Shown piece after piece: positions 410 through 30,994 of a DNA stretch of 32,000 nucleotides. A model generated the notes under the pieces. The model searched no databases, was not told the origin of the DNA, and saw only the letters and a list, made by a program, of their open reading frames with translations. Numbering within the stretch: the first letter of the stretch is position 1; each line of letters opens with the position of its first letter. Source of the DNA: Phycisphaera mikurensis NBRC 102666 (GTDB taxonomy: Bacteria; Planctomycetota; Phycisphaerae; Phycisphaerales; Phycisphaeraceae); the NCBI RefSeq assembly GCF_000284115.1, contig NC_017080.1, forward strand, positions 1,710,001 through 1,742,000. The letters run 5' to 3'. A program made the position numbers and the translations under genes.

Positions 410-455
410 CCGCGGACCGTCGAGGTTTTCGCGGGTTTCCGGCCACGGTCCGCGG
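410..455. repeat. 46-bp inverted-repeat element copy 1 (CCGCGGACCG-N26-CGGTCCGCGG), intergenic, 5' leader of PEP-CTERM gene
   Basis: Exact 10-nt arms at 410-419 and 446-455. The stem extends to 12 bp (408-419/446-457). Confidence 0.9.
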
Positions 456-531
456 GCGCCGGCGTCGGCCGCCCGTGTCTTGCGAGGGTTCCTCCGGGAG
501 CCGCCCTCCGGGGCACGCGAGAGACCGACGC

Positions 532-1153
532 ATGCGAAACCTCCTCCCGATGCTGCCCGCCACCGCCGTGGCGTTCGCTTTCCTCGTCGCCGCGCCGGCT
601 TCGGCGCAGGCGACGTTCCAGTACGCGGTCGGGTCGGGCGAGGCCCGCAGCGACCTCGTCGTCGACTTCGCGGGCTCGGGCAGCACGCCGGGCGGGGCGT
701 ACGCCTTCTCCTACTTCTACGACCCCGCGGACAACCCGACCGGGCTCGACCTGCTGACGGCGATCGATGCGGGCGGCGGCCTCGACGTCGCGACGACGCA
801 GTTCAGCTTCGGCGTCGCCATCGACGGTTTCACCTTCGGCGACGACTCGCGGGTGTTCGAGAGCTTCACGGAGGGCTCGTTCCGCTACTTCGTCTCCGGG
901 GGGGACCGGGCAGCAGTTCCTGCCCCCGGACTTCGCGCCCACGCTCCGCGACTACGCCGACGACGGGTACACGGTCGCGGCTTCCGGGGCGTCGGGTCGC
1001 TTCCTCGCCGACGGCAGCGTCGACGCCTTCCGCTTCGCCGACGCCGCGGGGACCCGGCCGGCGGCGGTGCCGGCGAACATCCCCGAGCCCGCGGCCGCCG
1101 CGTGGGCGGCGGGCGGCGGGCTGCTGCTGCTGCTCCGACGGCGGGCGTCGTGA
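532..1153 (+). pseudogene. PEP-CTERM sorting-domain secreted protein (DUF4430-like fold suspected), interrupted by a frameshift at a G7 tract (898-904)
   Basis: ATG 532 gives the signal peptide [27 protein letters not shown] in frame 1. Protein-like sequence continues to ...FRYFVSGG, then degrades into Arg-rich text. Frame 2 picks up at the same G run with [10 protein letters not shown]...[24 protein letters not shown], i.e. a PEP motif, TM stretch and RRR (PEP-CTERM signature). Removing one G joins the halves. Confidence 0.7.
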
Positions 1154-1941
1154 GGCGGCGTCCCGCCTTCACGCTGGTCGAGCTGCTGGTCGTCGTCTCC
1201 GTGATCGCGCTCTTGATCGGGCTGCTGCTGCCGGCGCTGGCGGCGACGCGGGAGGCGGGCCGTGCGGCGGTGTGCCTGTCGAACCTGCGGCAGACCACGC
1301 TGGCGCTGATCAGCTACGCGACGGCGGACGGCGGCGGGCTCGTGCCGCTGGTGCAGAATCGACCCGCGGGGCGGGCTTGGTGGTTCGGCTTCGAGCCGAA
1401 GCCGTACGTCGGCCTCAACCGGCCGATCGAACCCGGGGGCTCGCCGCTGGCGACGCACGCGGACGGGCTCTTCGGCGAGGGCATCGCCTGCCCCGCCTTC
1501 CCCGCCGGCGACCCGGGCTTCAACGCGAAGTTCGCCCGGCGGAGCGCCCACTTCGGCTACAGCGGCGGCCTCGCGCCGCCGGCGTACACCGGTCTGCCGA
1601 CGAAGCGCCTGGTGGAGGTGGCCGACGCGTCGGGCACCTTCGCCTTCGCCGACGCGCTGCACCAGGACTTCTCGCCCACCGCGTTCAACGAGCCGCACGA
1701 GGTCGCCTTCCGCGGTCCGGGCGCGGTGAGCGGGGCGGGGCACTTCCGCCACGCCGCAACGGCAAACCTCTCCTACCTCGACGGACACGCCGCCGCCCTG
1801 GAGCCGCCGGAAGGGGAGGCGGTGCACGGGAGCTTCGGGGGCGGCGACCTCGTCAACCTCGACGTCGCGCAGGGGCGGGGCACGCGTTACGGCTTCCCGA
1901 CGTGGACCGCGTCGCTGCTCCCCGCCACGGTGCGGCCATGA
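1150..1941 (+). CDS. prepilin-type N-terminal cleavage/methylation domain protein (DUF1559-like pseudopilin)
   Basis: GTG 1150 overlaps the upstream TGA (GTGA). The N-terminus is [29 protein letters not shown], followed by [14 protein letters not shown] and a C-terminal NLSYLDGH motif typical of this Planctomycete family. Confidence 0.85.
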
Positions 1942-2231
1942 GGATCGATCGCTGCGTCTGCACGGGTCGCTTCTTCGAGAGCCTGCTCGCCCAGGCCCGG
2001 GCGGAGGATCTGTCGTTGCCGCAGCTGATGGAGCGAACCGGCGCCGGGCGTGGCTGCGGCAGCTGCCGCGTCTACGTCTCCCGGGCGTACCGAACCGGCC
2101 AGACCGTCTTCGGCGAGCTGCTCGAGAGCGACGCGGAGCCGCCGCCGGCGGAGGGGGACGCGCAGGCGGCGACGCCGGCGCCGGCGGCAGCCGCGCGGGA
2201 CCGTGGAGCGACGCGCGACGCCGGAGGCTGA
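1938..2231 (+). CDS. BFD-like [2Fe-2S]-binding domain protein
   Basis: ATG 1938 overlaps the upstream stop (ATGA). The sequence [11 protein letters not shown]...[13 protein letters not shown] carries the C-x-C...C-x-x-C pattern of bacterioferritin-associated ferredoxin-like domains. Confidence 0.8.
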
Positions 2232-2370
2232 AGACCCCGCCGCCGGCGGGGCCCGCGGCTCGGGGGCCGCCGGCTTCATCCGGCCGGGCCGGTCTGCTGT
2301 CGCGTCGGGTTCCACGCGGTTAGGCTCCCCGCCCGCCGCTTCCCCGCTTCCCCGACCCCCGAGAGCCGCC

Positions 2371-3513
2371 GTGAGTGCCAACTCTGATTCCCTGATCGCC
2401 CACGACCCCTTGAAGGTCCACGCGACGCTGGCGGACACGCCGCTCTCGAAGTACTTCAAGGCGGCGGTGAAGTTCGGGGCCTCGGACCTGATCATGCGGG
2501 GCGGCCAGCCGCCCAAGCTGCGGCTCAAGGGCGACCTCAAGGCGCTGGACACCCGGCCGCCGACGGTCAAGGAATTCAACGACTGGATCCACGACGGGCT
2601 CTCGCCCGAGCAGATCGCGCAGTACCAGGACCGGGGCAGCCTCGACCTGGGCATCGACTTCGACATCGACGGCGAGAAGCACCGCTTCCGCGTGAACATC
2701 TTCCTGACCCGTTCTCGCTCCGCCATCGCCGCCCGCCGGGTCAGCAACGAGATCCTCAACTTCGAGCAGCTGCACCTGCCGCCGGCGATGGAGAAGATCA
2801 CCCACGCCAAGCAGGGCATCATCCTCCTGTGCGGGGTGACGGGTTCGGGCAAGTCCACCACCATCGCGGCGATGCTCGACGAGATGAACAAGCGGGATCC
2901 GATCCACATCCTCACCATCGAGGACCCGATCGAGTACCTCTTCGAGGACAAGAAGGCGATGATCAACCAGCGCGAGATCGGGCTGGACTGCCCCGACTTC
3001 GCGACCGCCCTCCGCGCGATGGTCCGGGAGAACCCCGACGTGGTGCTCGTCGGGGAGATGCGCGACCGCGAGACCTTCGAGGCCGCGCTGCAGGCCGCCG
3101 AGACCGGGCACCTCGTGCTGGGCACGATCCACGCGAGCTCGGCCACCCAGGCCTTCGGCCGCATCTACGACCTGTTCCCCGCGGAGGAACGCGAGGCGAT
3201 CCGCACGCTGCTCGCGTACCAGATGCAGGCCTTCATCTACCAGAAGCTCCTGCCGACGCTGAAGGAGAACATGCCGCGCGTGCCCGCGGTCGAGATCCTG
3301 CTCCAGAGCCCGCCGGTGCGGAAGGCGATCATCGAGGGCCGCGAGGCGGAGCTCGACAAAGTCATCAAGGACAGCCGCGACATGGGCATGCGGACCTTCG
3401 TCGACTCCCTGGTCGAGCTGGTGGAGACCGAGTACATCCACCCCCGCGTGGCGCAGGCCAATGCGCCGTCGGCGGACGAGATCAAGATGCGGCTCCGGGG
3501 GATCTCCGTATGA
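2371..3513 (+). CDS. pilT: type IV pilus twitching-motility (retraction) ATPase, PilT family
   Basis: Walker A GVTGSGKSTT, Asp box ILTIEDPIEYLF, Walker B DVVLVGEMRDRET and His box GHLVLGTIHASSA are all present. The GTG 2371 start is chosen just upstream of the conserved N-terminal domain. Confidence 0.9.
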   Translation: MSANSDSLIAHDPLKVHATLADTPLSKYFKAAVKFGASDLIMRGGQPPKLRLKGDLKALDTRPPTVKEFNDWIHDGLSPEQIAQYQDRGSLDLGIDFDIDGEKHRFRVNIFLTRSRSAIAARRVSNEILNFEQLHLPPAMEKITHAKQGIILLCGVTGSGKSTTIAAMLDEMNKRDPIHILTIEDPIEYLFEDKKAMINQREIGLDCPDFATALRAMVRENPDVVLVGEMRDRETFEAALQAAETGHLVLGTIHASSATQAFGRIYDLFPAEEREAIRTLLAYQMQAFIYQKLLPTLKENMPRVPAVEILLQSPPVRKAIIEGREAELDKVIKDSRDMGMRTFVDSLVELVETEYIHPRVAQANAPSADEIKMRLRGISV

Positions 3514-5126
3514 CGCCTGAACCGGCCTTCCTCGTCAGCATCGCCAAGCCGCTGCTGCTCTTCGCCGTCCTGCTGGGCTGGGGGCGGTTGGTTTCCTTCT
3601 TCGACAAGGACGCGGCGCACTTCCACCTCAAGCGGACGCTGTTCAACGGGCTGCACCTGCTCGGCGGTGTCGCCGGCTTCGGCGTGATGCTCCTGGTTCC
3701 GCTGTTCTGGCTCGGCCTCCCGCTGGGCGTGCTGCTGCTGGCCGGGTCGATCGCGGGCTACGTCTACTACCGCAACGGCCAGGTCGACGACAAGCAGAAG
3801 TGGACGCTCGACCTGGAGGATCTCCGCCGCCAGATGGCGGAGAAGCGGCAGGGCAAGGCCCAGAAGGCGACGAGCGTCAAGCTCCGCCGCAACGGCCAGG
3901 AGGTCGAGGTGCCCCGCGGCGACGACCCGCGCGTGGAGGCTCACGAGCAGCTCGAGCGGATGCTCAAGTTCTCGGTCGAGCGGGACGCGGAGACGATGGA
4001 CCTGGTGGTCGAGGACCAGAAGGTCCAGCTCTCCGCGAAGATCGACGGCGTGCGTTACCCCATCGAGTCGCCGGCACCGGACGTCGCGCTCGCCGCGATC
4101 GACTTCATGAAGCAGGCGGCCGGGCTGGACATCGACGACCGCCGCCGCCGGCAGAGCGGACGCGTGCAGGCGGAGGTGCTCGACGAGGAGGGCGGCTCCC
4201 GCTCGGCGGAGCTGGAGATCCTCACCGCGGGCAGCACCCGCGGCGTGCAGATGCAGGTGACGCTGAACCCCGACGCGAGCACCGAGATGCCCCTGGACCG
4301 GCTGGGCCTGCTGCCCAAGCAGCTGGAGTACCTCGAGTCGGTGCTCGGCGAGAACAAGGGCGCGGTGGTGCTCGCGGCGGACAAGCACCAGGGGGCGCCG
4401 ACGACGATGTTCGCGATGCTCAGCCGCGTCGATCCCTACACCAACTCGGCGGTGCTGATCGCCAGCGACGATCAGATCGACCTCGAGGGCATCGACCGGC
4501 ACGTCTTCGACCGCGGCAAGCCGGCCTCGGAGTTCAACTCCGAGCTGGCCGGCATCCTGCGGACCGATCCGAACATCGTGATGCTCGACCGGATCGCCGA
4601 TGCGAAGACGGTCGCGCTGATCGCGGGGCTCTCCAACGAGATCCGGTTCATGCTGCCGTTGCCGCAGCCGGACACGACCACCGCGGTGAAGGCTTACCTC
4701 AAGGCGTCCGGCGATCCGAAGGAGGCCGCCAAAGGCCTCTCGACGGTGATCGGTCAGCGCCTGGTCCGCCGGCTGTGCACGACCTGTCGCGTTCCCTACA
4801 GCCCCAACCCGGCCGCGCTCAAGAAGCTGGGGATCCCGCAGGACAAGGTCGGGACGCTCTACAAGTCCAGCGGGAAGGTCCTCGTGAAGGAGCAGCAGCA
4901 GGCCTGCCCCGACTGCCACGGCATCGCGTACCGCGGGCGCGTCGGGGTCTTCGAGGTGATGCCGGTCGACGACCGTGCCCGCAAGCACATGGCCGCCGGC
5001 GAGATGGACGCGCTGCGGAGCCACCTCCGCAAGCAGGGCATGGTCTACCTCCAGGAGGCCGGCCTCGCCAAGGTGGTCGAGGGCGTGACGGACATCAAGG
5101 AGGTTCAGCGGGTGCTGGCGGAGTAG
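3510..5126 (+). CDS. membrane-anchored GspE/PilB-like protein with degenerate ATPase motifs (predicted pseudo-ATPase)
   Basis: ATG 3510 overlaps the pilT stop (ATGA). There are three N-terminal hydrophobic helices. A GspE N2-like region (SAKIDGVRYPIE...IDDRRRRQSGRV) and a C-terminal tetracysteine motif (CTTCRVPY...CPDCHGIAYRGRVGVFEV) are retained. Walker A reads LAADKHQGAPTT, Walker B NIVMLDRIAD and the His box PLPQPDT. Confidence 0.85.
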   Translation: MTPEPAFLVSIAKPLLLFAVLLGWGRLVSFFDKDAAHFHLKRTLFNGLHLLGGVAGFGVMLLVPLFWLGLPLGVLLLAGSIAGYVYYRNGQVDDKQKWTLDLEDLRRQMAEKRQGKAQKATSVKLRRNGQEVEVPRGDDPRVEAHEQLERMLKFSVERDAETMDLVVEDQKVQLSAKIDGVRYPIESPAPDVALAAIDFMKQAAGLDIDDRRRRQSGRVQAEVLDEEGGSRSAELEILTAGSTRGVQMQVTLNPDASTEMPLDRLGLLPKQLEYLESVLGENKGAVVLAADKHQGAPTTMFAMLSRVDPYTNSAVLIASDDQIDLEGIDRHVFDRGKPASEFNSELAGILRTDPNIVMLDRIADAKTVALIAGLSNEIRFMLPLPQPDTTTAVKAYLKASGDPKEAAKGLSTVIGQRLVRRLCTTCRVPYSPNPAALKKLGIPQDKVGTLYKSSGKVLVKEQQQACPDCHGIAYRGRVGVFEVMPVDDRARKHMAAGEMDALRSHLRKQGMVYLQEAGLAKVVEGVTDIKEVQRVLAE

Positions 5127-5130
5127 GAGA

Positions 5131-5242
5131 GAAGCGGAGAAGCGGAGAAGCGGAGAAGCGACGAAGCGACGAAGCGGAGAAGCGAAGAGGCGGAGAAGCG
5201 AAGAAGCGACGAAGCGGAGAAGCGAAGAAGCGGAGAAGTCAG
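5131..5242. repeat. tandem array of ~14 degenerate 8-bp units (GAAGCGGA / GAAGCGAC / GAAGCGAA), array R1
   Basis: Read directly from the sequence, starting 5 nt after the TAG at 5124-5126. The array is almost T-free on the + strand. Confidence 0.95.
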
Positions 5243-5301
5243 AAACAGAGACGCAACCCTGATGTGAATGCAAGCCCGATGGGGGAGCCGTGGCCTCTTG
5301 C

Positions 5302-5345
5302 CTGACTTCTTCGCTTCCTATCTTCTTCGCTTCCCCGCTTGCCTC
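5302..5345. repeat. inverted, pyrimidine-strand partial copy of the octamer array (CTGACTTCTTCGCTTCC...)
   Basis: 5302-5318 is the reverse complement of 5226-5242 with 2 mismatches in 17. Together with R1 it makes a long imperfect inverted repeat around a 59-nt spacer. Confidence 0.7.
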
Positions 5346-5366
5346 CGCCGAAGGCGGATCCTTCCC

Positions 5367-7091
5367 ATGATCCTCAACATCCTCGTCCTCGTCCTCGTCC
5401 TCGCGATGGCCATCTTCTGGTCGACGCAGGGGCTGTTCAGCGCCTTCATCCACCTGGTCGCGACGGTGGTCGCCGGCGCGATCGCTTTCGCGGTGTGGGA
5501 GCCGGTGACGCTGGGGCTGTTGCTCGATCCGCTCACGTCGTGGGCGTGGGCGACCGGGCTGCTGCTGCCCTTCGCGCTGGCGCTGATCGTGTTGCGGATC
5601 CTCAGCAACAAGGTGATCGGCGGCAACCTGAAGCTGCCGAGCCTCGCCGACCAGGGCCTCGCCGGCCTCGTCGGGGCGGTCAGCGGCGTCCTGACGGCGG
5701 GCGTGTGCCTGCTGGGGGTGTCGTTCCTGCCGCTGGGCCCGGCGCTGCTGGGCTACCAGCCCGTGGAGGTGCAGACCACCGCGCGCCTCGGCCCGCCCAC
5801 CAACGACGCCGTGACGACCTCGCTCTGGATCCCGGTGGACCGGCTGACCGCCGACTTCTTCGCCTTCGCGTCCACCCACGGATTCTCGAGCCACCGCCCC
5901 CTGGGCCTGCTGCGGCCGGATCTCGACGAGGCGGCGGCGCGATTCCGCATCGGCCAGTTCTACGACCCCAACGCCTCGCTCGTGGCCAACCCATCGACCG
6001 TCGCGGTCGAGGCGGTCCGGGTCTACGACGGCGAGCTGCCCGCCGAGGTGCCGGCGCTGCTGGGGCAGTTCATCGCCGAGTCGGCCCCGACCCGCAACGG
6101 CGACCGGCTCGTGCTGGTGACCACGCGGTGGGAGGCGCTCAAGGACACGGCCACCTTCGACGAGGGCATCCTCCGGCTCCCGCCGGTGCAGACCGTGCTG
6201 CTCGCGGCGCCCCCGGCCGGGCCGCTCGCCATGCACCTGCCGGTGGGCTGGAGCAAGAAGCCGGTGACCTCCAGCACCGCCGCGTTCTACGGCGTGGTGG
6301 ACAACCGCAGCTACGCGAGCAGCGAGCTGCCCGAGGAGACGATCACCTTCGTCTACGCGATCCCCGAGAACCAGGACCCCGTGTACTTCGAGACCCGGAT
6401 GCTGCGGATCCCGCTGGGCGAGCCGGAGCAGGGCGCCGCCGGGGACGGAGCGGTCGTGGCCGACCTGCTCGGGGAACCGGCCATCGAGGCCGGCGAAGAG
6501 GGCGACGCGGGCGGCGGGCCCGGCGTCAACGTCTCGCCGCAGAACGCCGCGGCCGCGGCGGCGGTGGGCGAGCCCGTCGGCAACGCCGCCTTGAAGGCGC
6601 TGTCGATCGAGGCGACGAACAGGCTGCCGGGTCGCATCTCCATCAACGCGGCGAGCGGGCTCGACGTGGAAGAGAAGGAGGTGATCTCCGGGCGGCAGAA
6701 CGTGCAAAAAGGCGACCGCACCGCGACGGTCGACTCCATCCGCACGCCGCCGGGCCAGGTCATGGTCCGCCTGGAGCTGTCGCCGATGAGCACCAGCCAG
6801 GCATTGCCCACGCGGGTCGTCGCGAAAGTCGCCGGGGGGGACGGCCGGTACAAGCTCGTGGACACCCGCGGGAACGAGTTCTTCGCCCGTGCCACCGTGT
6901 GGCAGAAGGACGCCGGCGAGCAGGAGATCCACGTGACCGACCGCCTCGACAACGCGGCAGACCTCCCGATCAACCGCCTCCAGGACGGCGACCGGCTGTT
7001 CGCCTACTTCGCCATGCCCGACGGGCTCGTGCTTGACCGGTTCGTGGTCGGCACGATGGAGCAGGACGTCGACTTCACGGTGGGGGAGTGA
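5367..7091 (+). CDS. CvpA-family membrane protein fused to a ~400-aa C-terminal domain of unknown function
   Basis: ATG 5367 gives [31 protein letters not shown]... with four hydrophobic helices resembling colicin V production protein (CvpA). I do not recognise any motif in the remainder. Confidence 0.8.
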
Positions 7092-7100
7092 CGTCTCCTT

Positions 7101-7171: not shown

Positions 7172-8521
7172 GTGCTCGGTCGGCTCCTCGCCACCGGTGA
7201 AGGCCGCCGTGCGGTGGTGCTCGGGCTCGGCCGCTTCGGGGGCGGCGTGGGGGTGGTGGGCTTTCTCGCGGAGCGAGGGTTCTCGGTGGAGGTGGTCGAC
7301 GACGCGGACCGGGCGTCGCTGGCGGCTTCGGAGGCGACGGTCCGCGGGTCGTGCTCCAGCCTGCGGCTGGGGCCCGGCAGCTCGGACGCCGCGGCGGCCG
7401 AGATCGGCGGGGCGGCGCTGCTGGTCGTCAACCCGGCGGTGAAGCCGGGGCACCCGCTGTGGGCGGCGGCGGAGGCGGCGGGCGTGCCGGTGACCACGGA
7501 GATCGGGCTGCTGGTGTCGGTGCTGCCGGAGGGCGTGGACGTCGTCGGCATCACCGGTTCCGCCGGGAAGAGCACGACCTCAAGCATGGCGGCGGTGGTT
7601 TCGGAGACCGGCGGCGGAACCGGCCGCGTGTGGCTCGGCGGCAACCTCGGCGGATCGCTGCTCTCCGGCGTCGCGGCGTTCGCGGACGCGGACACGTTCG
7701 TGCTCGAGCTCTCCAGCTTCATGTGCTTCCACCTCGACCGGCTCGGCTGGTCGCCAGGCGTCGCGGTGCTCACGAACCTCTCGCCGAATCACCTCGACTG
7801 GCACGGCGGCTTCGCCGCCTACGCCGCGGCGAAGAGGGCGCTCTTCGCGCATCAGCAGCCCGGGGACCGCGCGGTGCTGCCCGCCGGCATGGAGACGTCC
7901 TTCGTACGCCGCGGCGTGGAGGTCGTGCCGGTGGAGGCTCCTCCAGCGGATCTCCCTCTGCTGCGGGTGCCCGGCGAGCACAACCGGCTCAACGCGGCTT
8001 TCGCCCTCGCCGCCGCGGAGCCGCGGACCGCGAGCAAAAAGGCCCGCGACGCCCGACGGTCCGCGGCGCTGGAGGCGCTGGCCGGCTTCGCGGGGCTGCC
8101 GCACCGGCTGCAGGCGGTGCCGGTGACGACAGGCTGGCCCGCGGGCGTGCGGGCGTTCGACGACTCCAAGGCGACGACGCCGGAGGCGGCGGCGCTCGCC
8201 CTGCAAGCCTTCGAGCCCGGTGTCGTGCGGGTGATCCTCGGCGGGGCGGACAAGGGCAGCGACCTCGCTCCGCTCGCCCGCTCCGCGGCCCGACACGCGG
8301 CGGGCGTCTACGCGATCGGCCGCACCGGCGACGCCATCGCCGACGCCGCGGGAGGCGGCCCGGCGGTCGTCCGCCGCTGCGGGACGCTTGCCGGCGCCGT
8401 CGACGCGATCCGCGGCGACGCCCGGCCGGGCGACGTCGTGCTCCTCTCCCCCGGCTGCGCTTCCTGGGACCAGTTCCCCAACTACGAGGCGCGGGGCGCC
8501 GCCTTCGCGACGAGCCTCTGA
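7172..8521 (+). CDS. murD: UDP-N-acetylmuramoylalanine--D-glutamate ligase
   Basis: [11 protein letters not shown] Rossmann N-terminus, [12 protein letters not shown]-loop, [34 protein letters not shown] and [19 protein letters not shown] are all present. The start is uncertain. GTG 7172 has AGGAGG at 7147-7152 and lies downstream of R2. The alternative GTG 7088 (GTGA overlap) would translate the octamer array. Confidence 0.9.
7302..7347. repeat. 46-bp inverted-repeat element copy 2 (inside murD; left arm ACGCGGACCG)
   Basis: Nine perfect arm pairs (7303-7311/7338-7346) with a 26-nt spacer. It is translated as [15 protein letters not shown]. Confidence 0.8.
8021..8066. repeat. 46-bp inverted-repeat element copy 3 (inside murD)
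   Basis: Exact arms at 8021-8030 and 8057-8066 with a 26-nt spacer. It is translated as [15 protein letters not shown]. Confidence 0.9.
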
Positions 8522-13732: not shown

Positions 13733-14325
13733 GAACCGCACGCTGCTCCGCTCTGCCCGCCACCCTGGCCGCGGTCGCTGCGTGGCGACGCCACGCTGTC
13801 CGACTCCCCATCCAGCTCCTTCGCGCTCAAGGCAGACGGAGCGGCGTCGCCGCTCCGCTCTCGGAGCCAACGGCGCCACGCTGTCCGCGTCGCGATCCAG
13901 CTCCTTCGCGCACAAGCAGACAGAGCGGCGTCGCCGCTCAGCTCTCGGAGCCACCCTGGCCGCGCTAGCTGCGTGGCGACGCCACGCTGTCCGACTCCCA
14001 GTTCCAGCTCCTTCGCGCACAAGGCAGACAGAGCGGCGTCGCCGCTCAGCTCTCGCAGCCAACCTGGCCGCGTTAGCTGCGTGGCGACGCCACGCTGTCC
14101 GGGTCCCCATCCAGCTTCCTCGCGCACAAGCCCGACAGAGCGGCGTCGCCGCTCAGCTCTCGCAGCCGGCCTGGCCGCGTTAGCTGCGTGGCGACGCCAC
14201 GCTGTCCGGGTCCCCATCCAGCTTCCTCGCGCACAAGCCAGACAGAGCGGCGTCGCCGCTCAGCTCTCGCAGCCAGTTTGGCCGCGATGGCTGCGTGGCG
14301 ACGCCACGCTTTCCGGGTCGCGATC
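13733..14325. repeat. tandem repeat, ~107-bp unit, 5 full and 2 partial copies, each with two perfect 17-bp palindromes
   Basis: Unit starts (CTGCGTGGCGAC) are at 13778, 13969, 14077, 14184 and 14291, plus a head-deleted unit at ~13873. The palindromes are GCGTGGCG-A-CGCCACGC and GAGCGGCG-T-CGCCGCTC. Confidence 0.95.
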
Positions 14326-14383
14326 CGGCCCCGACGGGACGCGGTGTCTGCCGAAGCGCCGGCGGCTCGGCCGCGGCGGCCGG

Positions 14384-15252: not shown

Positions 15253-15428
15253 GAAGAGGCGAAGAAGCGGAGAAGCGAAGAAGCGGAGAAGCGAAGAAGC
15301 GAAGAAGCGGAGAAGCGAAGAAGTGAAGAAGCGGAGAAGCGAAGAAGTGGGGAAGCGAAGAAGCGGAGAAGCGAAGAAGTGGGGAAGCGGAGAAGCGAAG
15401 AAGTGGGGAAGTGGGGAATTGGAAGGGA
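15253..15428. repeat. octamer array R3, ~22 units (GAAGAAGC GGAGAAGC GAAGAAGT GGGGAAGC ...), preceded by a G10 tract (15244-15253)
   Basis: Read directly from the sequence. It lies between the ABC ATPase stop (15471) and the first TM helix of the permease. Confidence 0.95.
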
Positions 15429-15470: not shown

Positions 15471-16433
15471 TTAGTTTCGCTCCTCTTTGCTTGCTCCGTG
15501 CCTGGTTGCAGCCGTCGCTCGCGCGGCCTCGGTTTTGGTTGCACGCTCGAGATAGAAGGCTTCGAGCGTCGGTGCGATGGGGGCGAAGGCGGAGACGTCG
15601 AAGCCCGCGTTCACGAGGTGGGCGTTCGCCCGGGCGAGCGGGACGTCGCCGCGGACCGTGACGGTTTCGGGCTCCTGGCCGTCGCGGTCCGCGGATTCGA
15701 CGAGGCCCGCTGCGGCGAGGGAGGCGAGGGCTTCCGCGGGGCGGTCGGTCCGGATGCGGACGCGGCGGCGGGCGGCGGCGGTGGCGGCACGCCAGTCGCC
15801 CTCGAAGACGTGCCGGCCGCGGTGCAGCACGGTGACGGTCCCGCAGAGCTTCTCCACCTCGGCGAGCAGGTGGCTGCTGAAGAGGATCGTGAGATCCAGC
15901 TCGGCGTGCAGCTCCAGCAGCAGCTCGCGGAAGGCGGCGATGCCCTGCGGGTCGAGGCCGTCGGTGGGCTCGTCGAGGATGAGCACCTCGGGCGTGGGCA
16001 GCAGCGCCTGCGCCAGCGCGAGCCGCTGGCGCATGCCGTGCGAGTAGGTGGAGACCTTGGCGTGGATCCGCTCCGCGAGGCCGACCCGCTCCACGACGGC
16101 GTCGATCTCCGCCTCGCTCACCCGGCGCGTGAGGTTGGAGAAGGCCCGCAGGTTCCGCCGGGCCGAGAGGTAGTCGTAGAAGCACGGCGCCTCGAAGATG
16201 GCGCCCACCCTCCCCAGCGCCGCGCCGCGTTCCGCCGCGACGTCGTGGCCGTTCACCAGCGTCCGGCCCGCGTCGGGGTGCACCTGGCCGAGCAGCATGC
16301 CCAGCGTGGTGGACTTGCCGGCGCCGTTGTGGCCGAGCAGGCCGTGGATCGCGCCCCGCGGCACCTCCAGCGACAGCCCCTCGACGGCCGGCCGGCCCGC
16401 GAAGGCCTTCGACAGGTTCTCGAGGCGGATCAC
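15471..16433 (-). CDS. ABC transporter ATP-binding protein (ABC-2 exporter type)
   Basis: Walker A GHNGAGKSTT, signature YSHGMRQRLALAQAL, Walker B VLILDEPTDGLD and H-loop SSHLL are all present. Confidence 0.95.
   Translation of the reverse strand: MIRLENLSKAFAGRPAVEGLSLEVPRGAIHGLLGHNGAGKSTTLGMLLGQVHPDAGRTLVNGHDVAAERGAALGRVGAIFEAPCFYDYLSARRNLRAFSNLTRRVSEAEIDAVVERVGLAERIHAKVSTYSHGMRQRLALAQALLPTPEVLILDEPTDGLDPQGIAAFRELLLELHAELDLTILFSSHLLAEVEKLCGTVTVLHRGRHVFEGDWRAATAAARRRVRIRTDRPAEALASLAAAGLVESADRDGQEPETVTVRGDVPLARANAHLVNAGFDVSAFAPIAPTLEAFYLERATKTEAARATAATRHGASKEERN
15649..15694. repeat. 46-bp inverted-repeat element copy 4 (inside the ABC ATPase CDS)
   Basis: Exact arms at 15649-15658 and 15685-15694 with a 26-nt spacer. 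The stem extends inward (15/16 over 16 nt). It is translated on the - strand as ADRDGQEPETVTVRG. Confidence 0.9.
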
Positions 16434-19715: not shown

Positions 19716-21548
19716 TCACGCCCGCGCGGACAGCGCCTCCCAGCGGGCGTAGAGGTGCTCGACGTGGCGCTGGCCGATGCCCAGCTGCTCGCAGACGGCG
19801 GCGTGCTTCCGGTGGTCGGCCACGACGCCGGGCTCGGCGGCGAGAGCCTCCAGCGCGGCGACCTGCTCCTCGGCGTGGAGGATGGCATCTTCCATGTGAT
19901 CGAGCTCGTGCTTCTCTTTGAAGGTGAGCTTCGCCGGGCCGGGTTCGGACGCCCCGGCCGCGCCGGAATCCGCGGACCGCCGCTGTTTTCCGCCCCGTGG
20001 AACCGCGGTCCGCGGGCCGTCGGCTCGCTCGGTCGCGCGGAGGTACTGGTCGTGGGTGGCGAAGACGCGGGCTTCGCCTCCGGGGAGCAGGCCGATCACG
20101 GAGGTGGCGAGCCGCTGCAGCAGGAAGCGGTCGTGGGTGACGAGCACGACGGCGCCGGGGAAGCCGGCGAGCTGCTCCTCGAGGATCTCCAGCGAGGGGA
20201 TGTCCAGGTCGTTGGTGGGCTCGTCGAGGACGATCACGTCGGCGGGCTGGAGCATCAGCCGCGCGAGCAGGACCCGGGCCTGCTCGCCGCCGGAGAGGTC
20301 GCCGACGCTGACCTTCAGCTTCTCCTTGCTGAACAAGAAGCGCTCCGCCCACGCCGCGACGTGGACCGGCTGGCCGCGGAAGAGCACGGCATCCCCCGCC
20401 GGGCAGAGCGCCTCGCGGAGCGCGTGCGTGGGATCGAGCGCCTCGCGGGCCTGCGTGAAGTAGACGGTCCGCAGGTCCTGGGCCTCCTTGACGGTGCCGG
20501 TGTCGGGCTCGAGGCGGCCGGTCAGGACCGAGAGCAGCGTGGTCTTGCCCGAGCCGTTGGGGCCGAGCAGGCCGAGGCGGTCGCCCGGGGACACCACCAG
20601 GTCGAGGCCGGCGAAGAGCGTGCGGTCGCCGTAGCGCTTCGAGAGGTTGTGGCCGACGAGGAGGCGATTGGTCTTCCGCTGCGTCGCCTCGAAGCCGACC
20701 GCGGCGGACTGCCCGGCGGTCTGCCGAAGCCGGTCGATCGCCTGCAGCTGAGCCCGCCGCTGGGCACCGGCCTCGACCTGGGTCTTGTTCCGCGTCTGCC
20801 TGCCCTGAACGCCCTGCCGTGCCCACGCCGTGTCGGTCCGCACCTTGTTCGCAAGGCTGCTCCGCTGCTGCTCGAGGGTGGCGAAGTGCTGCTCGCGTCG
20901 CTCCAGAAACTTCTGGTAGCCGCCCTCGCTCTCCAGCGTGCCGCCGGCGTAGGCGGGCGACAGCTCGATGATCCGGTTCGCGGCGCCTTCGAGGAAGGCG
21001 CGGTCGTGGCTGACGAGAGCGACGGCGACCGTCGGCGGGAGGCCCCGGAGGAACTTCTCCAGCCACAGCACGCCCTGCAGGTCGAGGTGGTTGGTGGGCT
21101 CGTCCAGCAGCAGAACCTCGGGATCGGTCACCAGGGCGCGGGCGAGCGAGAGCCGCTTCCGCCAGCCGCCGGACATCCGATCCACCTCGTGCGTCACGCC
21201 GTCGAAGCCCAGCCGCGAAAGCTCGCGGGCGGCGCGGGCCTCCGCGTCGGGTCCGGTGCCGGCGGCCCCGCCGGCCCGGCGTGCGCTGGCCGCGACGACC
21301 TCCATCGCGGTGTCGTGGCCGAAGTGGTCGCTCTGGCCCAGGTACACGCACCGCAGCCCGCGTCGCCGGATCACCTCGCCCTCGTCGGGCGTCTCGAGCC
21401 CGGCGAGGATCTTCAGCAGCGTGCTCTTCCCGCTGCCGTTGGGCCCGATGACGCCGAGCCGCTCGCCCGCGGCGAGCGTCAGCCCGACGCCGGTGAAGAG
21501 GGTCCGGGAGCCGAAGGTCTTCTCGAGGTCCGAGGCGGTGAGGAGCAT
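19716..21548 (-). CDS. ABC-F family ATPase (Uup-like, two ABC domains plus C-terminal coiled coil)
   Basis: GPNGSGKSTLL plus LSGGWRKRLSLARAL plus LLLDEPTNHLD, then GPNGSGKTTLL plus LSGGEQARVLLARLM plus IVLDEPTNDLD. No TM segments. Confidence 0.95.
   Translation of the reverse strand: MLLTASDLEKTFGSRTLFTGVGLTLAAGERLGVIGPNGSGKSTLLKILAGLETPDEGEVIRRRGLRCVYLGQSDHFGHDTAMEVVAASARRAGGAAGTGPDAEARAARELSRLGFDGVTHEVDRMSGGWRKRLSLARALVTDPEVLLLDEPTNHLDLQGVLWLEKFLRGLPPTVAVALVSHDRAFLEGAANRIIELSPAYAGGTLESEGGYQKFLERREQHFATLEQQRSSLANKVRTDTAWARQGVQGRQTRNKTQVEAGAQRRAQLQAIDRLRQTAGQSAAVGFEATQRKTNRLLVGHNLSKRYGDRTLFAGLDLVVSPGDRLGLLGPNGSGKTTLLSVLTGRLEPDTGTVKEAQDLRTVYFTQAREALDPTHALREALCPAGDAVLFRGQPVHVAAWAERFLFSKEKLKVSVGDLSGGEQARVLLARLMLQPADVIVLDEPTNDLDIPSLEILEEQLAGFPGAVVLVTHDRFLLQRLATSVIGLLPGGEARVFATHDQYLRATERADGPRTAVPRGGKQRRSADSGAAGASEPGPAKLTFKEKHELDHMEDAILHAEEQVAALEALAAEPGVVADHRKHAAVCEQLGIGQRHVEHLYARWEALSARA
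19970..20015. repeat. 46-bp inverted-repeat element copy 5 (inside the ABC-F CDS linker)
   Basis: Exact arms at 19970-19979 and 20006-20015 with a 26-nt spacer. It is translated on the - strand as PRTAVPRGGKQRRSA. Confidence 0.9.
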
Positions 21549-22842: not shown

Positions 22843-22888
22843 CCGCGGACCGTCGGCTCCGGGTCTTCCCGCTGGTCACGATCCGCGG
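22843..22888. repeat. 46-bp inverted-repeat element copy 6 (intergenic; right arm CGATCCGCGG, one mismatch)
   Basis: Arms at 22843-22852 and 22879-22888 with a 26-nt spacer. The interior CCGGGTCTTCC resembles the CGGGTTTCC of copy 1. Confidence 0.8.
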
Positions 22889-24386: not shown

Positions 24387-24631
24387 GTGGAGGTTCCTGT
24401 CGGGGATCGATGCGGGAGGTGGGTCGGCTTCGGCCTTCCGGGTGTCGTCCGGAGTGTAAAGAAGGAGGCGCAGCGGTGCGGGCGCGGCTCCGGCCCGGCC
24501 CGGCGCCGCACCTCCAACCGCACCCGGGCCCGCACCGGATGCAAATGATTATCGTCTTCGGGGCCTCGGACTTACGGCCCGAGCCAGAGGCCGCGTCAGC
24601 GGAAAATCTCACGAGCGGAAGGCAGAGCACC

Positions 24632-26335: not shown

Positions 26336-26427
26336 GAAGGCCCGCGTAGATTTCGAGCCGCCCGTAGACTCGCCGCATCGCCGCGCTCGCCCCGCCCCCG
26401 CCCCGCCACGCCGCCGGAACGCTCGCG

Positions 26428-27441
26428 TTGCGGGTGTTGCCGGAGGCTCCACCGTCCGCCGACGCCGGGCCGGCGCTGCGGGACAGCAGCGGGCGGGGCG
26501 TGCATTACCTGCGCATCTCCGTCACGGGCAACTGCTCGATGCGGTGCGGCTACTGCCGGCCCGGCGTCGACGCCAACCAACCCGAGCCCGGACGCTTGAA
26601 CGCGGGGGAGATCCGCTTCCTGGTCGACCACCTGCACCGCCGCGGCGGCCTGCGGAAGGTCCGGCTGACCGGCGGCGAGCCGACGACCCGGCGCGACCTG
26701 CCGGAGCTGGTGCGGGCGGTGCGGGACGCGGGCGTGGAAGAGGTGGCGATCACGACCAACGGGCTGACGCTGGAGCGAGACGCGGCGCGGCTCGCCGCCG
26801 CGGGGCTCTTCCGCTTGAACGTCAGCCTCGACACGCTCGACGCCGGGCGCTTCGCGACGCTGACGGGCGTGGACGGGCTGGCGCGGGTGCTCCGCGGGAT
26901 CGAGGCGGCGCGGGCGGAACTGCCCGGGCCGGTGAAGCTCAACGCGGTCGTCATCGCCGGCCACAACGACGGCGACGACCTGCTGGGCCTCGCCCGCTAC
27001 GCGGCGGAGCGGGGGCTGGCCCTCCGCTTCATCGAGCTGATGCCGATGGGCCCGCTCGCCGGGGCTTGGGCCGGCCGCTACGTGCCGGCCGCGGCGATGA
27101 AGGCGACGCTGCGGGCGGCGGGCGTCGGGCTCGAAGCGCTGCCCGAGACCGCCGACGCCGCGCGCCGCTTCCGGGCGGAGCTGCCCGGCGGCGGCGTCGC
27201 CGACCTGGGCTTCATCACGCCGATGAGCTGCAACTTCTGCTCGGCGTGCGACCGGCTGCGGGTGTCGGCCGACGGCGACCTGCACCCGTGCCTGATGGAC
27301 GCCCCGCGCGGCAACGCGGCCGAGGCCCTCCGCCGCCGGGACGCGGACGGCCTGGACCGGCTGCTGGAAGCCGCCTTCGCGATAAAGGCCGCCGAGCACC
27401 CCGAGGCGGGGCCCGCCGTCATGACCCGGATGGGCGGCTGA
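26428..27441 (+). CDS. moaA: GTP 3',8-cyclase (molybdenum cofactor biosynthesis protein A)
   Basis: Radical SAM motif CSMRCGYCRP, GGEPT and the C-terminal cluster CNFCSACDRLRVSADGDLHPCL. Candidate starts are TTG 26428, GTG 26434 and TTG 26437. Confidence 0.9.
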   Translation: MRVLPEAPPSADAGPALRDSSGRGVHYLRISVTGNCSMRCGYCRPGVDANQPEPGRLNAGEIRFLVDHLHRRGGLRKVRLTGGEPTTRRDLPELVRAVRDAGVEEVAITTNGLTLERDAARLAAAGLFRLNVSLDTLDAGRFATLTGVDGLARVLRGIEAARAELPGPVKLNAVVIAGHNDGDDLLGLARYAAERGLALRFIELMPMGPLAGAWAGRYVPAAAMKATLRAAGVGLEALPETADAARRFRAELPGGGVADLGFITPMSCNFCSACDRLRVSADGDLHPCLMDAPRGNAAEALRRRDADGLDRLLEAAFAIKAAEHPEAGPAVMTRMGG

Positions 27442-27713
27442 TGGCGTCCGCGGCGCCGAGCGAAGCGAAGATCCGCGTCCGGCTCTTCGGCGTGCAGGCC
27501 GAGCGTGCCGGCCGCGGTTCCGTGTGCGTCCGCGTGTCGCCCGGCGCCACCACCCTCGGCGACCTCCGCGGGCTCATCGCCGCCGCCGAGCCGTCGCTCG
27601 CCGCGTCGCTGCCGGCGAGCCGCTTCGCGGTGGACCACGCCTACGCGGCGGAAGACCGCACGCTCGCCGGCGACGAAGAGGTGGCGCTCATCGGGCTCGT
27701 GGGCGGCGGCTGA
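27441..27713 (+). CDS. moaD: molybdopterin synthase sulfur-carrier subunit
   Basis: ATG overlaps the moaA stop (TGATG). The product is 90 aa with a ubiquitin-like pattern, ending ...IGLVGGG (C-terminal Gly-Gly). Confidence 0.85.
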   Translation: MASAAPSEAKIRVRLFGVQAERAGRGSVCVRVSPGATTLGDLRGLIAAAEPSLAASLPASRFAVDHAYAAEDRTLAGDEEVALIGLVGGG

Positions 27714-28102
27714 TGGAGGCCGTCGCCGTGCATCTGGTGGAGGGGCCGCTGGCGGCCGCCGCGGACGGCGGCCGCGGCGCGGGCCGGAGCGGGGCGGTGG
27801 TGCTCTTCGAGGGCGTGGTCCGCGGATCCGAGGGCGGGCGGCCGCTGCGGTGCCTGCGCTACGAGGCGTACGAGCCGATGACCACGGCCGAGCTGCAGCG
27901 GCTGGGCGGGGCGGTGGTCGGCGAGTTCGGGCTGCAGGCGCTCGGGGTGTGGCACAGCGTCGGGGAGGTCGGCGTCGGCGAGGTGTCGTTCCGGCTGCGC
28001 GTCCGGTCGGCGCACCGGGCGGAGGCGCTGGCCGCGGCGTCGGCCTTCATCGACCGGATGAAGGCCGACGTGCCCCTGTGGAAGGTCCCGGCGTTCGGGT
28101 GA
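27713..28102 (+). CDS. moaE: molybdopterin synthase catalytic subunit
   Basis: ATG overlaps the moaD stop. HSVGEVGVGEVSFRLRVRSAHRAEALAAASAFIDRMKADVPLWK matches the conserved MoaE C-terminal region. Confidence 0.85.
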   Translation: MEAVAVHLVEGPLAAAADGGRGAGRSGAVVLFEGVVRGSEGGRPLRCLRYEAYEPMTTAELQRLGGAVVGEFGLQALGVWHSVGEVGVGEVSFRLRVRSAHRAEALAAASAFIDRMKADVPLWKVPAFG

Positions 28103-28122
28103 GCCCGGGCCGGCTCCTGTCG

Positions 28123-29337
28123 ATGGTGTCGCCGGAGGAGGCCGCGGCCGCGGTCTGCGATCGGCTGGCGGCGGTCGGCTCGGAGCGGGTGGCCCACGCG
28201 CAGCTGCCCGGCCGCGTGCTGGCCGGCCCCGCCACCGCCGACCGCGACTCGCCGCCGGCGGACGTGTCGGCGATGGACGGCTACGCGCTCCGCGCAGCCG
28301 ACGCGCCCCCGCCGGGGGGTGACGCGTGGCTGCCGGTCGCCGGGGAGGTGCGGATCGGCGAAGCGCCGCCGCCGCTGCCCACCGGGGCGGCGCTCCGCGT
28401 GTTCACCGGCGGGGCGGTGCCGGCGGGCGCCGACGCGGTGGTGCCGCGGGAGCTGCTGGAGGAGGAGGCGGAACCCGGCGGCGGGCGCGGCGGCCGCATC
28501 CGCTGGCTCGCCGGCTCACCCGCTCCGGTCGTGGGCCGCCACATCCGCCGACGCGGCGAGAACGCCCGCGCCGGCGACGTTGTGCTCCCGGTCGGCGTCG
28601 AGGCCACGCCCGCCGTCGTCGCCACGCTGGCCGCCTTCGGCGCGGCGCCGCCGGTCCGCCGGCGTGTCCGCGTCGCGATCCGCGTGACCGGCGACGAGCT
28701 GCACGCCGCCGACGCCGCCGTGCTCCCGCCGCTGGGCATCCGCGACGGCAACGGCCCGGTGATGGCCGCGTTCGTGGCCGGCCTGCCGTGGGCGGAGGTG
28801 GTCTCCATCGAGCGGGTGCCCGACGACCGCGACGCCACGACGCTGTCCATCGCCTCGGCCCTGGAAGCCTCCGACGCCGTGCTGCTCTCCGGCGGCGTCT
28901 CCATGGGCGACCACGACCACGTGCCCGCCGCCTGCGTCGCCGCCGGCTGCACGCCGGTGTACCACCGCCTCGCGATGCGGCCCGGCAAGCCCAACTTCGG
29001 CGCCGCCGGCCCGGCGGGCCAAGCCGTGCTGGGTCTCCCCGGCAACCCGGTCTCCGTGCTCGCGGGCCTCCGCGTGCTCACTCTTCCCGCGCTCCGCCGC
29101 CTCGCCGGCTTCGCCGCGCCGCAACCCCCGCGCCTGCGCGTCGCGGTCGCGCCCGACGACGCCAAGACGCTCCCGCTCTGGCACTACCGCCCCGCGCGGA
29201 TCGGCTTCGACGGCCGGGCCCACCCGCTGGCCCACCGCGGCAGCGGCGACGTCGCCGGCCCCGCCGCCATGCACGGCTTCGTGGAGATCCCGCCGGGCGA
29301 AGCCGCCGAGGCCCGGCCGCGCCGCTGGTTCGCCTGA
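28123..29337 (+). CDS. moeA: molybdopterin molybdotransferase
   Basis: SAMDGYALR, FTGGAVPAGADAVV, LLSGGVSMGDHD, MRPGKP and LPGNPVS are present. ATG 28123 is preferred; GTG 28099 (overlapping the moaE stop) is possible. Confidence 0.9.
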   Translation: MVSPEEAAAAVCDRLAAVGSERVAHAQLPGRVLAGPATADRDSPPADVSAMDGYALRAADAPPPGGDAWLPVAGEVRIGEAPPPLPTGAALRVFTGGAVPAGADAVVPRELLEEEAEPGGGRGGRIRWLAGSPAPVVGRHIRRRGENARAGDVVLPVGVEATPAVVATLAAFGAAPPVRRRVRVAIRVTGDELHAADAAVLPPLGIRDGNGPVMAAFVAGLPWAEVVSIERVPDDRDATTLSIASALEASDAVLLSGGVSMGDHDHVPAACVAAGCTPVYHRLAMRPGKPNFGAAGPAGQAVLGLPGNPVSVLAGLRVLTLPALRRLAGFAAPQPPRLRVAVAPDDAKTLPLWHYRPARIGFDGRAHPLAHRGSGDVAGPAAMHGFVEIPPGEAAEARPRRWFA

Positions 29338-29397
29338 GCCCCACGCCCCGGCCGGGACGCGGACCGGCTGGAGAAGCCCCCGCGCGTACCCTGCGAC

Positions 29398-30894
29398 ATG
29401 GCCGCTCCGACGTTCAGCTCGCTGCTCCATCGCGACCTCGGCCTCACCGCCGTCGCCGACGGGAGGAAGCGGCTCCGCCCCGAGGAGGGCCTCGCGCTCC
29501 TGAAGGAGGCTCCGCTGCCGGCGCTCGGCCGGCTCGCCTCCGCCGCGGCCGAACGCATCCACGGTGACCGGCTGCGGACGTACGTGATCGACCGCAACAT
29601 CAACTACACGAACGTCTGCACCGCGGCCTGCACGTTCTGCGCCTTCAAGCGGAACCTCAACGACGCCGACGCCTACGTGCTCGGCGAGGCGGCGATCCAC
29701 GCGAAGGTCCAGGAGCTCGTCGACATCGGCGGCAACCAGGTCCTGCTGCAGGGCGGGATGCACCCGGACCTGCCGCTCGGCTTCTACACCGGCATGCTCA
29801 GCGGCCTGAAGAAGGCCTTCCCGCAGGTCCACCTGCACGCCTTCAGCCCGCCGGAGTTCGTCGAGTTCGTCGCGGTGCTGGAGGTGGACGGCTTCCCCAC
29901 CGCCCGCCCCGGCCGCGGCGAGACGCTCGGCCGCGGTGCCTGGCTCGCGAAGCTCGAGGCCGTGATGCGGGAGCTGATGGCGGCCGGGCTGGACAGCCTC
30001 CCCGGCGGCGGCGGCGAGATCTTCGGCCCCCACGTGCGGCACCGCATCGGCCCGGGCAAGGCCAGCGGCGCCCAGTGGCTGGACGTGATGGAGACGGCCC
30101 ACCGCGTCGGCATGAGGACCTCGGCCACCATGATGTTCGGGCACCTGGAGGGCCGGATGGACCGGATCCAGCACATGGACGCGGTGCGTTCGCGGCAGGA
30201 CCGGGCCATCGAGGCGGATCTTCCCGGCCGGTACCTCTCCTTCATCTCGTGGCCGTACCAGCGCGAGAACACGCCGCTGGACCGCCTGCCCGACCACGAC
30301 CCGCTCGCGGAGAAGCGCGGCGGCGAGCCCTTCCCCGGTGACGTCCTCGCCGAGGCCGTTGCCCGCGGCGAAGTCGATCCGGAGGACCGCGCGGCCTGCC
30401 GCCGCGTCGCGCCCGGAGCCGGCAAGGTCCTGCGGACGGCCGGCGGCACGGAGTACCTCCGCACGCAGGCCGTCTCGCGGCTGTACCTCGACAACATCCA
30501 CTCGATCGGCAGCAGCTGGGTGACGATGGGCCCGCGGATCGGGCAGCTCGGCCTCCTGTACGGGGCCAACGACATGGGCAGCGTGATGATGGAGGAAAAC
30601 GTCGTCTCGGCCGCCGGCACCACCTACTGCCTGAACGAGGCGACGCTGTGCCGGCTCGTCCGCGACGCCGGGTTCGTGCCCGCCCAGCGGAACAACCGCT
30701 ACGAGGTCCTCCAGGAGCACCCCGACACCCCCGACGCCCCCGATCGCAGGATCGACGACTGGTCGACGCAGCGGCCCCGGGCCCAGCGGGCGGCCTTCGA
30801 ACCCGGCGTGAAGGCGGAGGCGAAGGACGGGCCGGCCACCGTTCCGCTGACCGTCACCGCCGGGCACGTGCAGGCCGCGCCCGCGCTCGCCTGA
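29398..30894 (+). CDS. radical SAM enzyme of the MqnC/MqnE (futalosine-pathway menaquinone) / CofH-like family
   Basis: NINYTNVCTAACTFCAF (CxxxCxxC), VLLQGGMHP, HLHAFSPPE, GLDSLPGGGGEIF, SATMMFGHLE and YGANDMGSVMMEENVVSAAG are present. I cannot separate MqnC from MqnE by eye. Confidence 0.8.
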   Translation: MAAPTFSSLLHRDLGLTAVADGRKRLRPEEGLALLKEAPLPALGRLASAAAERIHGDRLRTYVIDRNINYTNVCTAACTFCAFKRNLNDADAYVLGEAAIHAKVQELVDIGGNQVLLQGGMHPDLPLGFYTGMLSGLKKAFPQVHLHAFSPPEFVEFVAVLEVDGFPTARPGRGETLGRGAWLAKLEAVMRELMAAGLDSLPGGGGEIFGPHVRHRIGPGKASGAQWLDVMETAHRVGMRTSATMMFGHLEGRMDRIQHMDAVRSRQDRAIEADLPGRYLSFISWPYQRENTPLDRLPDHDPLAEKRGGEPFPGDVLAEAVARGEVDPEDRAACRRVAPGAGKVLRTAGGTEYLRTQAVSRLYLDNIHSIGSSWVTMGPRIGQLGLLYGANDMGSVMMEENVVSAAGTTYCLNEATLCRLVRDAGFVPAQRNNRYEVLQEHPDTPDAPDRRIDDWSTQRPRAQRAAFEPGVKAEAKDGPATVPLTVTAGHVQAAPALA

Positions 30895-30948
30895 TGCGGT
30901 CGAGGGCCACCCGCGCCGCGTTTGGGGAGGCGGATTCCGCCCACCACC

Positions 30949-30994
30949 CCGCGGACCGCCGCCGCCCAGCACCCGAACGACCGGCGGTCCGCGG
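30949..30994. repeat. 46-bp inverted-repeat element copy 7 (intergenic, 55 nt after the mqn-family stop)
   Basis: Exact arms at 30949-30958 and 30985-30994. The stem extends inward to 13 bp (30949-30961/30982-30994). Confidence 0.9.

Follow-up and report, generated by a model that had tools for sequence, protein, structure and literature searches.

The window analyzed here, a stretch of 32,000 nucleotides of Phycisphaera mikurensis NBRC 102666 (NC_017080.1, positions 1,710,001 to 1,742,000, forward strand; 73% G+C; its MurD is 100% identical to the P. mikurensis protein), carries a dispersed motif, CCGCGGACCG-N26-CGGTCCGCGG, in which two inverted 10-bp arms are held 26 nt apart. The arms and the spacing are under constraint at the DNA level, and the motif is restricted to the P. 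mikurensis clade. Contigs of relatives, from metagenome-assembled genomes (MAGs), were reached via orthologs of MurD, ABC-F, and a pseudopilin, and their proteins were 57-88% identical to those of P. mikurensis by BLASTP (65-89% in MAFFT alignments). At least 20 specified bases are invariant at orthologous sites, murD included, while the surroundings have diverged: the arms of orthologous copies were identical in 260 of 260 pairwise base comparisons, the interiors were 49-82% identical, and the 30-nt flanks were 53-67% identical. An old insertion decaying neutrally would not keep perfect arms around an interior that has diverged to saturation, so that this origin is excluded, and the invariance of the arms amid divergence means that some sequence-reading machinery must act on the whole chromosome of this poorly studied lineage. 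We conclude that the element is very probably a recognition motif that is constrained at the DNA level in place, and not a miniature inverted-repeat transposable element (MITE).

A pattern search allowing up to three mismatches returned seven copies in the window, five of them exact and two with one mismatch, and none with two or three; the coordinates and mismatches reported in an earlier note on this DNA were reproduced. That note had also judged the number to be far above chance, which was borne out by 100 dinucleotide-preserving shuffles of the window (mean, 0.11 copies; maximum, 1). When the gap was varied from 11 to 41 nt across the window, the 26-nt form alone turned up. All 12 exact 10-mer arms in the window were members of the seven pairs, with no arm lacking a partner, and once the pairs were removed, lone arms with at most one mismatch showed no clear excess (∼35 compared with 28 expected). 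The signal does not arise from a bias in short palindromes, because CCGCGG alone was seen 130 times in the window against a Markov expectation of 131 and CGGWCCG was also at about its expectation. Avoidance or enrichment of restriction sites was rejected: the arms hold SacII- and RsrII-type sites, yet both sequences matched the Markov expectation outside the elements. The genes around each copy were assigned from called genes and Pfam matches, which placed four copies within coding sequences (murD twice, the ABC ATPase gene, and the ABC-F gene) and three between genes, as the earlier note had it. The copies are as follows.

410..455: exact; intergenic, 170 bp downstream of a mutY-like gene and 77 bp upstream of the gene starting at 532.
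7302..7347: one mismatch (position 1 = A); in the N-terminal domain of murD, phase ADR..VRG.
8021..8066: exact; in murD, phase PRT..RSA, within a clade-specific loop expansion of ∼10 aa.
15649..15694: exact; in an ABC-type ATPase gene (minus strand, 15471-16433), variable C-terminal domain, phase ADR..VRG.
19970..20015: exact; in an ABC-F gene (minus strand, 19716-21548), variable linker before the C-terminal domain, phase PRT..RSA.
22843..22888: one mismatch (position 39 = A; right arm CGATCCGCGG); intergenic, 68 bp upstream of an lpxL-like acyltransferase gene.
30949..30994: exact; intergenic, 55 bp past the stop codon of an mqn-like radical-SAM gene.

Where the P. mikurensis sequence was followed past the window, two more copies appeared, an exact one at window-equivalent position 36343 and another, with two mismatches, at about −340, so that 43.7 kb of contiguous sequence held eight copies with at most one mismatch plus one with two.

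The individual sites were then followed into the relatives. The murD copy at 8021 (copy 2) was present at the same place in all four relatives, with arms and 26-nt spacing identical in L123, L125, and L179 and interiors 49% identical, and the murD copy at 7302 (copy 1) was present in two of the four, L123 and L125, where even the A at its first base was kept. The copy at 410 has an ortholog at position 1396 of L123 with identical arms and an interior that is 62% identical. The ABC-F motif at 19970 occupied the same place in two fetched loci (its arms are kept in L180 and L181), and the peptide PRT-x8-RRSA was found in three homologs. In the ABC-F ortholog of L187 (P0125, about 4700-4790), a GGTTCCGGGG-type repeat expansion stood in place of the left arm and the right arm had one mismatch (CGGGCCGCGG); this degraded site indicates that sites turn over, being lost as well as kept. 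The copy upstream of lpxL (22843) had no counterpart with up to three mismatches in L180, L181, or L187. The spacer was 26 nt in every clade copy but one, at 483-529 of L125, where it was 27 nt. An engineered or artefactual origin was rejected: independent metagenome assemblies of the relatives carry the motif at orthologous positions.

Two side observations concern the relatives. The interior of the L125 copy with the 27-nt spacer (TGGCCGTTTTCGGCTCGAAACGGCCGA) is an almost perfect palindrome, unlike those of the other copies. The relatives also hold a few exact lone arms that lack a recognizable 26-nt partner (L123 at 3722, 4218, and 4763; L180 at 13839; L181 at 2128, 2675, and 7020), and one lone arm with a three-mismatch partner at 21 nt recurs in the same gene of L181 and L187.

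The density of the motif was measured in eight clade loci from about six genomes or MAGs, where 26 copies with at most one mismatch were found in 135 kb, or 1 per 5.2 kb; extrapolation from these ∼135 kb suggests ∼700-800 copies per 3.8-Mb genome. Copies with 0, 1, 2, and 3 mismatches stood in the ratio 17:10:4:1. A search with DUF1559 pseudopilins gave no paralogs from P. mikurensis itself, and the loci sampled away from the window were therefore those of the relatives, with Algisphaera as an outgroup. One marine metagenome provided 31 further contigs with exact copies in diverse contexts. On a crude classification of short metagenome contigs by open reading frames and third-position G+C content, ∼60% or more of the copies were noncoding, which is a strong enrichment. 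Two Algisphaera loci (42 kb, 64-66% G+C) contained zero copies and not one arm, MurD and ABC-F homologs below ∼57% identity were without the peptide signatures, and the viral contigs searched held no copy. Among the matches listed for unrelated high-GC genomes, the arm pair occurred as singletons only and evenly over spacings of 16-36 nt, with the 26-nt spacing in 3 of 121 arm pairs.

Exact matches to the pattern outside the clade were seen at 1488-1533 of L133, in L029 (= L132 = L143), and in L014 (= L172). One of them, in a contig of 39% G+C with AT-rich flanks, is unexplained; the others are identical sequences in Pseudonocardia-like and Tabrizicola-like contigs. These matches are without the interior and flank features of the clade copies and look unrelated to them.

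Those features were defined by pooling 55 copies and reading them in both orientations to give a symmetrized profile. The profile describes a two-fold symmetric site of ∼54 bp, AAB-arm-YSG, with GG|CC favored at the center. Positions 1-10 show essentially no variation, positions 11 and 36 are Y and R, and G occupies position 13 in 77% of the copies (position 34 = C). At the center of each arm is CGG-A-CCG, partly mirrored by the YSG just inside the arm. A/T content peaks at positions 7, 11, 18-20, 27-29, 36, and 40, compared with ∼15% elsewhere, and outside the arms A is enriched at −3/−2 and mirrored by T at +48/+49. A/T patches thus recur about every 10 bp across ∼54 bp, a periodicity that recalls DNA bent or wrapped on one face. 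In a comparison set of exact matches from other metagenomes, which is mixed and may include a few members of the motif family, the profile features were weak or absent, except for a similar A/T level at position 19; the search pattern itself therefore did not create them. Apart from the A/T patches, the interiors are unrelated between copies. The earlier description of a repeat family with conserved termini and a free core stands, whereas its claim of related interiors stands only partly: an A/T tract at 17-20 and/or 27-30 is common, with no shared sequence.

The symmetry of the site did not translate into base pairing. In permutation tests, complementarity exceeded chance only at the 11/36 pair (p = 0.007, uncorrected; TA 20 and CG 16 compared with CA 9 and TG 8), and none above chance was found elsewhere in the interior or in the flanks; a long hairpin or extended stem was rejected on these tests. 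Approximately 14 arm substitutions were present in the imperfect copies, and none was matched by a compensating change in the opposite arm. A composition that is symmetric yet shows no covariation, along with stems that are invariant, points to a two-fold symmetric protein that reads the sequence, most simply on duplex DNA.

The manner in which the motif is accommodated within genes was apparent from the codons that it imposes. Two reading phases use preferred codons only (phase 0, CCG CGG ACC ... CGG TCC GCG; phase 1, GCG GAC CGN ... GTC CGC GGN), whereas phase 2 would call for GGA and GGT, which account for 3% and 4% of the Gly codons in the window genes. The earlier note had stated that the window copies are read in two codon phases only, giving PRT..RSA and ADR..VRG; translation confirmed this, and codon usage explains the limit. 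Among the coding-like copies, phases 0, 1, and 2 were used ∼7, 10, and 2 times (∼2 of 19 for phase 2), and we attribute the rarity of the third phase to the scarcity of GGA and GGT. The coding copies lie in variable loops and linkers, at poorly conserved residues. Selection at the protein level for the PRT..RSA or ADR..VRG peptides was rejected: intergenic copies and copies in other frames have the same DNA.

To test for insertion, each host protein was aligned with close and distant homologs. The murD copy at 7302, which encodes ADRxSLxASEAxVRG, lies in a segment that is ungapped in 14 of 14 homologs. The variable linker that holds the ABC-F copy is about equally long in distant homologs (length change, 0), the ABC ATPase differs in length from its homologs by at most 4 aa at its copy, and the loop with the murD copy at 8021 exceeds that of other Phycisphaerae by ∼10 residues rather than by 15 or 16. 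A 46-bp insertion shifts the frame, so that a 2-bp duplication would be required to reach 16 codons; no coding site of the four fits this, and a clean insert of 15-16 codons was present at 0 of 4 intragenic copies. The L179 counterpart of murD copy 1 is equal in length, with a nearly identical interior and 8 of 20 consensus arm bases, from which we conclude that this site was gained or lost by ∼11 substitutions. The flanks of the window copies showed no direct repeats and hence no target-site duplication; in the pooled copies the flanks are instead inverted-symmetric (AAB...VTT), with A at −3/−2, T at +48/+49, and never A at −1. The ortholog alignments that the earlier note had proposed as its test thus gave a mixed outcome: they showed no sign of indels, yet relatives do have the inverted repeat in their DNA, kept far better than its surroundings. 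The comparison that the note had drawn with the in-frame palindromic repeats known from Rickettsia survives as to the in-frame position inside housekeeping genes and fails as to insertion (length changes of 0, ∼+10, ≤+4, and 0 aa).

Our favored account, which is tentative and which we rate at somewhat less than an even chance, is that of a clade-specific duplex recognition motif of ∼54 bp kept in place, with an uptake-type drive as the mechanism. Copies would arise and persist where they are, both between genes and in those parts of genes that tolerate them, under a force that would act on the bases of the arms and on their spacing. Both arms would be read on duplex DNA by a dimeric or tetrameric protein, with the spacer bent around it; a DNA-uptake receptor would prefer fragments with the motif; and recombination of the DNA taken up would spread and preserve perfect copies, as with the uptake signal sequences (USS) of the Pasteurellaceae and the DNA uptake sequences (DUS) of Neisseria. 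The comparative pattern makes such a drive of the uptake-signal type a possible specific mechanism, to which, taken by itself, we give a little less credence. The motif carries at least 40 bits by our estimate, compared with ∼13 bits that would be sufficient for ∼800 sites, and this excess of information would fit drive or copying better than ordinary selection on binding sites. A PilT/PilU-family retraction ATPase encoded in the window beside a PilB-like ATPase is permissive for uptake and says no more than that.

The known uptake signals provide the closest parallels. USS have been described under the heading "USS are not insertions" and consist of a core and two AT-rich segments spaced by about one helical turn (PMC1626085); their use of reading frames tracks codon preference, and they lie at poorly conserved residues (PMC2817400). 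The P. mikurensis motif resembles USS and DUS in being high-copy, clade-specific, noninsertional, and present in genes with enrichment between them, in its codon-compatible frames at poorly conserved residues, in the retention of orthologous positions in related species, in the preponderance of perfect copies over one-off copies, and in an invariant core with A/T tracts about one helical turn apart. HIP1 of cyanobacteria, a single hyper-abundant 8-bp palindrome, is similar in being palindromic, over-represented in coding and noncoding DNA, and spread in place rather than by transposition; the P. mikurensis motif differs from it in being 46-54 bp long, bipartite, ruler-like in its spacer, and much rarer.

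Several points weigh against an uptake signal. USS and DUS are single nonpalindromic cores of 9-12 bp at ∼1 per kb, whereas the P. mikurensis motif is a palindrome in two parts, in which each arm requires its partner exactly 26 bp away; it specifies at least 20 bases and, at ∼1 copy per 5 kb, has about one-fifth the density of USS/DUS. A single short core suffices for USS; here, 12 of 12 exact window arms were paired, the palindromic partner being obligatory and set off by a ruler-like spacer, and lone arms were not in excess in P. mikurensis. We know of no natural competence in Planctomycetota. Selection for a host function would give the same comparative pattern. Finally, the complementarity at 11/36 hints at some pairing, and there is a small probability that a hairpin with a stem of 10-11 bp is the form recognized.

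The strongest alternative, which we regard as possible but unlikely, is that the motif is the binding site of a host architectural or nucleoid-associated protein, or of another dimer-of-dimers protein, that organizes, tethers, or compacts the chromosome. Such sites would be held by ordinary purifying selection, also inside genes, as are parS, Noc-binding, matS, and SlmA sites. The two-fold symmetry of the site suits this idea, as does the ∼10-bp interval between A/T patches, which suggests bending on one face; an arm centered on CGG-A-CCG with the partial YSG mirror is compatible with one dimer per arm; and orthologous positions are conserved, essential genes included, and dispersed at ∼1 per 5 kb. 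Near-perfect retention of 20 or more bases at an estimated 700-800 sites is, however, far more information than such binding needs, known architectural sites number in the tens and are fuzzier, and our analysis identified no candidate protein. The familiar examples (parS, the Noc-binding site, matS, and the SlmA-binding site) are contiguous palindromes of 13-16 bp, present in tens of copies and often regionally clustered. They share with the P. mikurensis motif a symmetric site read by a dimer (a protein that is predicted in the present case), frequent location within genes, and conservation across species, whereas the P. mikurensis motif is split by a 26-bp spacer, is not clustered but dispersed, and may be present in hundreds of copies.

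A less probable alternative, to which we give little weight, is a single-stranded hairpin formed in RNA, or in DNA during replication or transcription, with a GC stem of 10-11 bp and a loop of 24-26 nt, which would be recognized by a sequence-specific protein and might serve in mRNA stabilization, processing, or termination or as the target of an HUH/RAYT-type enzyme. Every copy indeed folds into the arm stem (−27 to −40 kcal/mol as RNA; z-scores, −2.4 to −5.4), the stem is identical for either direction of transcription, and several of the copies between genes are found shortly after stop codons or where two genes converge; the pairing at 11/36 also counts in its favor. The stem never covaries, however, its arms being invariant or substituted without compensation, and loop and flanks lack complementarity despite their symmetric composition. 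No Rfam family matched in the window at the gathering threshold. An intrinsic terminator would have a U-tract after the stem, where only V-T-T follows, and would not be tolerated inside murD and the ABC-F gene, in which copies are kept; copies do occur within essential genes.

The remaining alternative, proposed in the earlier note, is that the copies are old insertions of a miniature nonautonomous element with 10-bp terminal inverted repeats, akin to MITEs, repetitive extragenic palindromic sequences (REPs) and REPINs, or Rickettsia palindromic elements (RPEs), and we consider it very improbable: its perfect inverted termini, fixed length, many dispersed copies, and intergenic enrichment, the clade-specific ∼10-aa expansion at 8021, and the intragenic REPs and RPEs documented in other bacteria (PMC3733652) are outweighed by the missing target-site duplications and inverted-symmetric flanks, by coding copies of which none is a clean insert and two show no length change, by interiors that share no sequence between arms that are perfect at orthologous sites diverged to saturation, unlike neutral decay, and by a 26-bp spacer that would be too short for synapsis of both ends in duplex DNA. 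In the 43.7 kb of contiguous P. mikurensis sequence there was no RAYT gene flanked by repeats. The MITE/REPIN view is largely refuted here. REPs and REPINs resemble the P. mikurensis motif as short palindromic repeats that number in the hundreds, lie mainly between genes and now and then within them, and persist by vertical descent (PMC3733652). The hairpins of REPs, on the other hand, are imperfect, have paired stems, and bear a GTAG or CGTC tag, and complementarity is retained in REPIN spacers, whereas in the P. mikurensis motif the 10-11 bp arms alone pair and there is no insertion signature, no GTAG, and CGTC only where positions 11-12 chance to be TC. The motif is also not confined to extragenic DNA, with 4 of 7 window copies in coding sequences at sites kept in relatives. 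RPEs share with it palindromic repeats that are translated in frame inside conserved genes, but they are insertions of ∼100-150 bp that add peptide segments relative to orthologs, whereas the P. mikurensis motif covers 46 bp of pre-existing codons and alters the length of the protein little or not at all.

The motif has apparently not been described before. The earlier note knew of no such element, and literature on the arm sequence, on palindromic repeats of Phycisphaera or Planctomycetes, and on REP/RAYT systems of Planctomycetes likewise gave none; Phycisphaera is not mentioned in a survey of GTAG-/CGTC-tagged REPs (PMC3733652). Among dispersed recognition motifs that spread in place (USS, DUS, and HIP1), it is unusual in combining a bipartite palindromic architecture with a fixed spacer. 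On the comparative evidence, it could be the first uptake-signal-like "self-DNA tag" outside Proteobacteria, a bipartite palindromic 54-bp signal with a symmetric receptor and a planctomycete transformation system with sequence-biased uptake, although we consider this doubtful; the more general form of the same suggestion, a new kind of molecular-drive motif that overwrites even essential genes, is similarly speculative. If the motif is an uptake signal, natural competence is predicted in Planctomycetota, and adding the motif to donor DNA would offer a handle for genetics. Planctomycetes of this kind divide without FtsZ, and if the motif is an architectural site, it would point to a new chromosome-organizing protein in such bacteria. 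Either way, it provides a clean clade marker in metagenomes and a case study in how a DNA-level signal is reconciled with protein coding.

Other features of the window were noted alongside the motif. Upstream of murD, at 2371-5126, lie the gene for the PilT/PilU-family type IVa pilus retraction ATPase (382 bits; cut-off, 319) and then that for a PilB/GspE-like ATPase; the pair is just upstream of murD, and the arrangement is conserved in relatives. Next to the copy at 410, the region 532-1941 was called as one gene of 469 aa with a signal-peptide-like start and a prepilin N-methylation motif in mid-protein (aa 213-232), and it may represent two genes or a frameshifted one. The label "PEP-CTERM gene" that the earlier note attached to it is weakly supported: the PEP-CTERM match lies in a different frame (767-1150) and is itself weak. 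The stretch 13874-14326 holds a second family of repeats, with no relation to the 46-bp motif, in which a 107-bp unit recurs 4.2 times in tandem with 91% matches, each unit being internally palindromic; this array is intergenic, between an AA_kinase gene and an ABC-2 permease gene. Arrays of the octamer GCGGAGAA / AGAAGCGG were found at 5118-5238 (15 copies) and 15253-15418 (∼20 copies). The first is accompanied by an inverted pair at 5204-5242 and 5302-5340, and the second lies in the 5′ part of the called ABC-2 permease gene.

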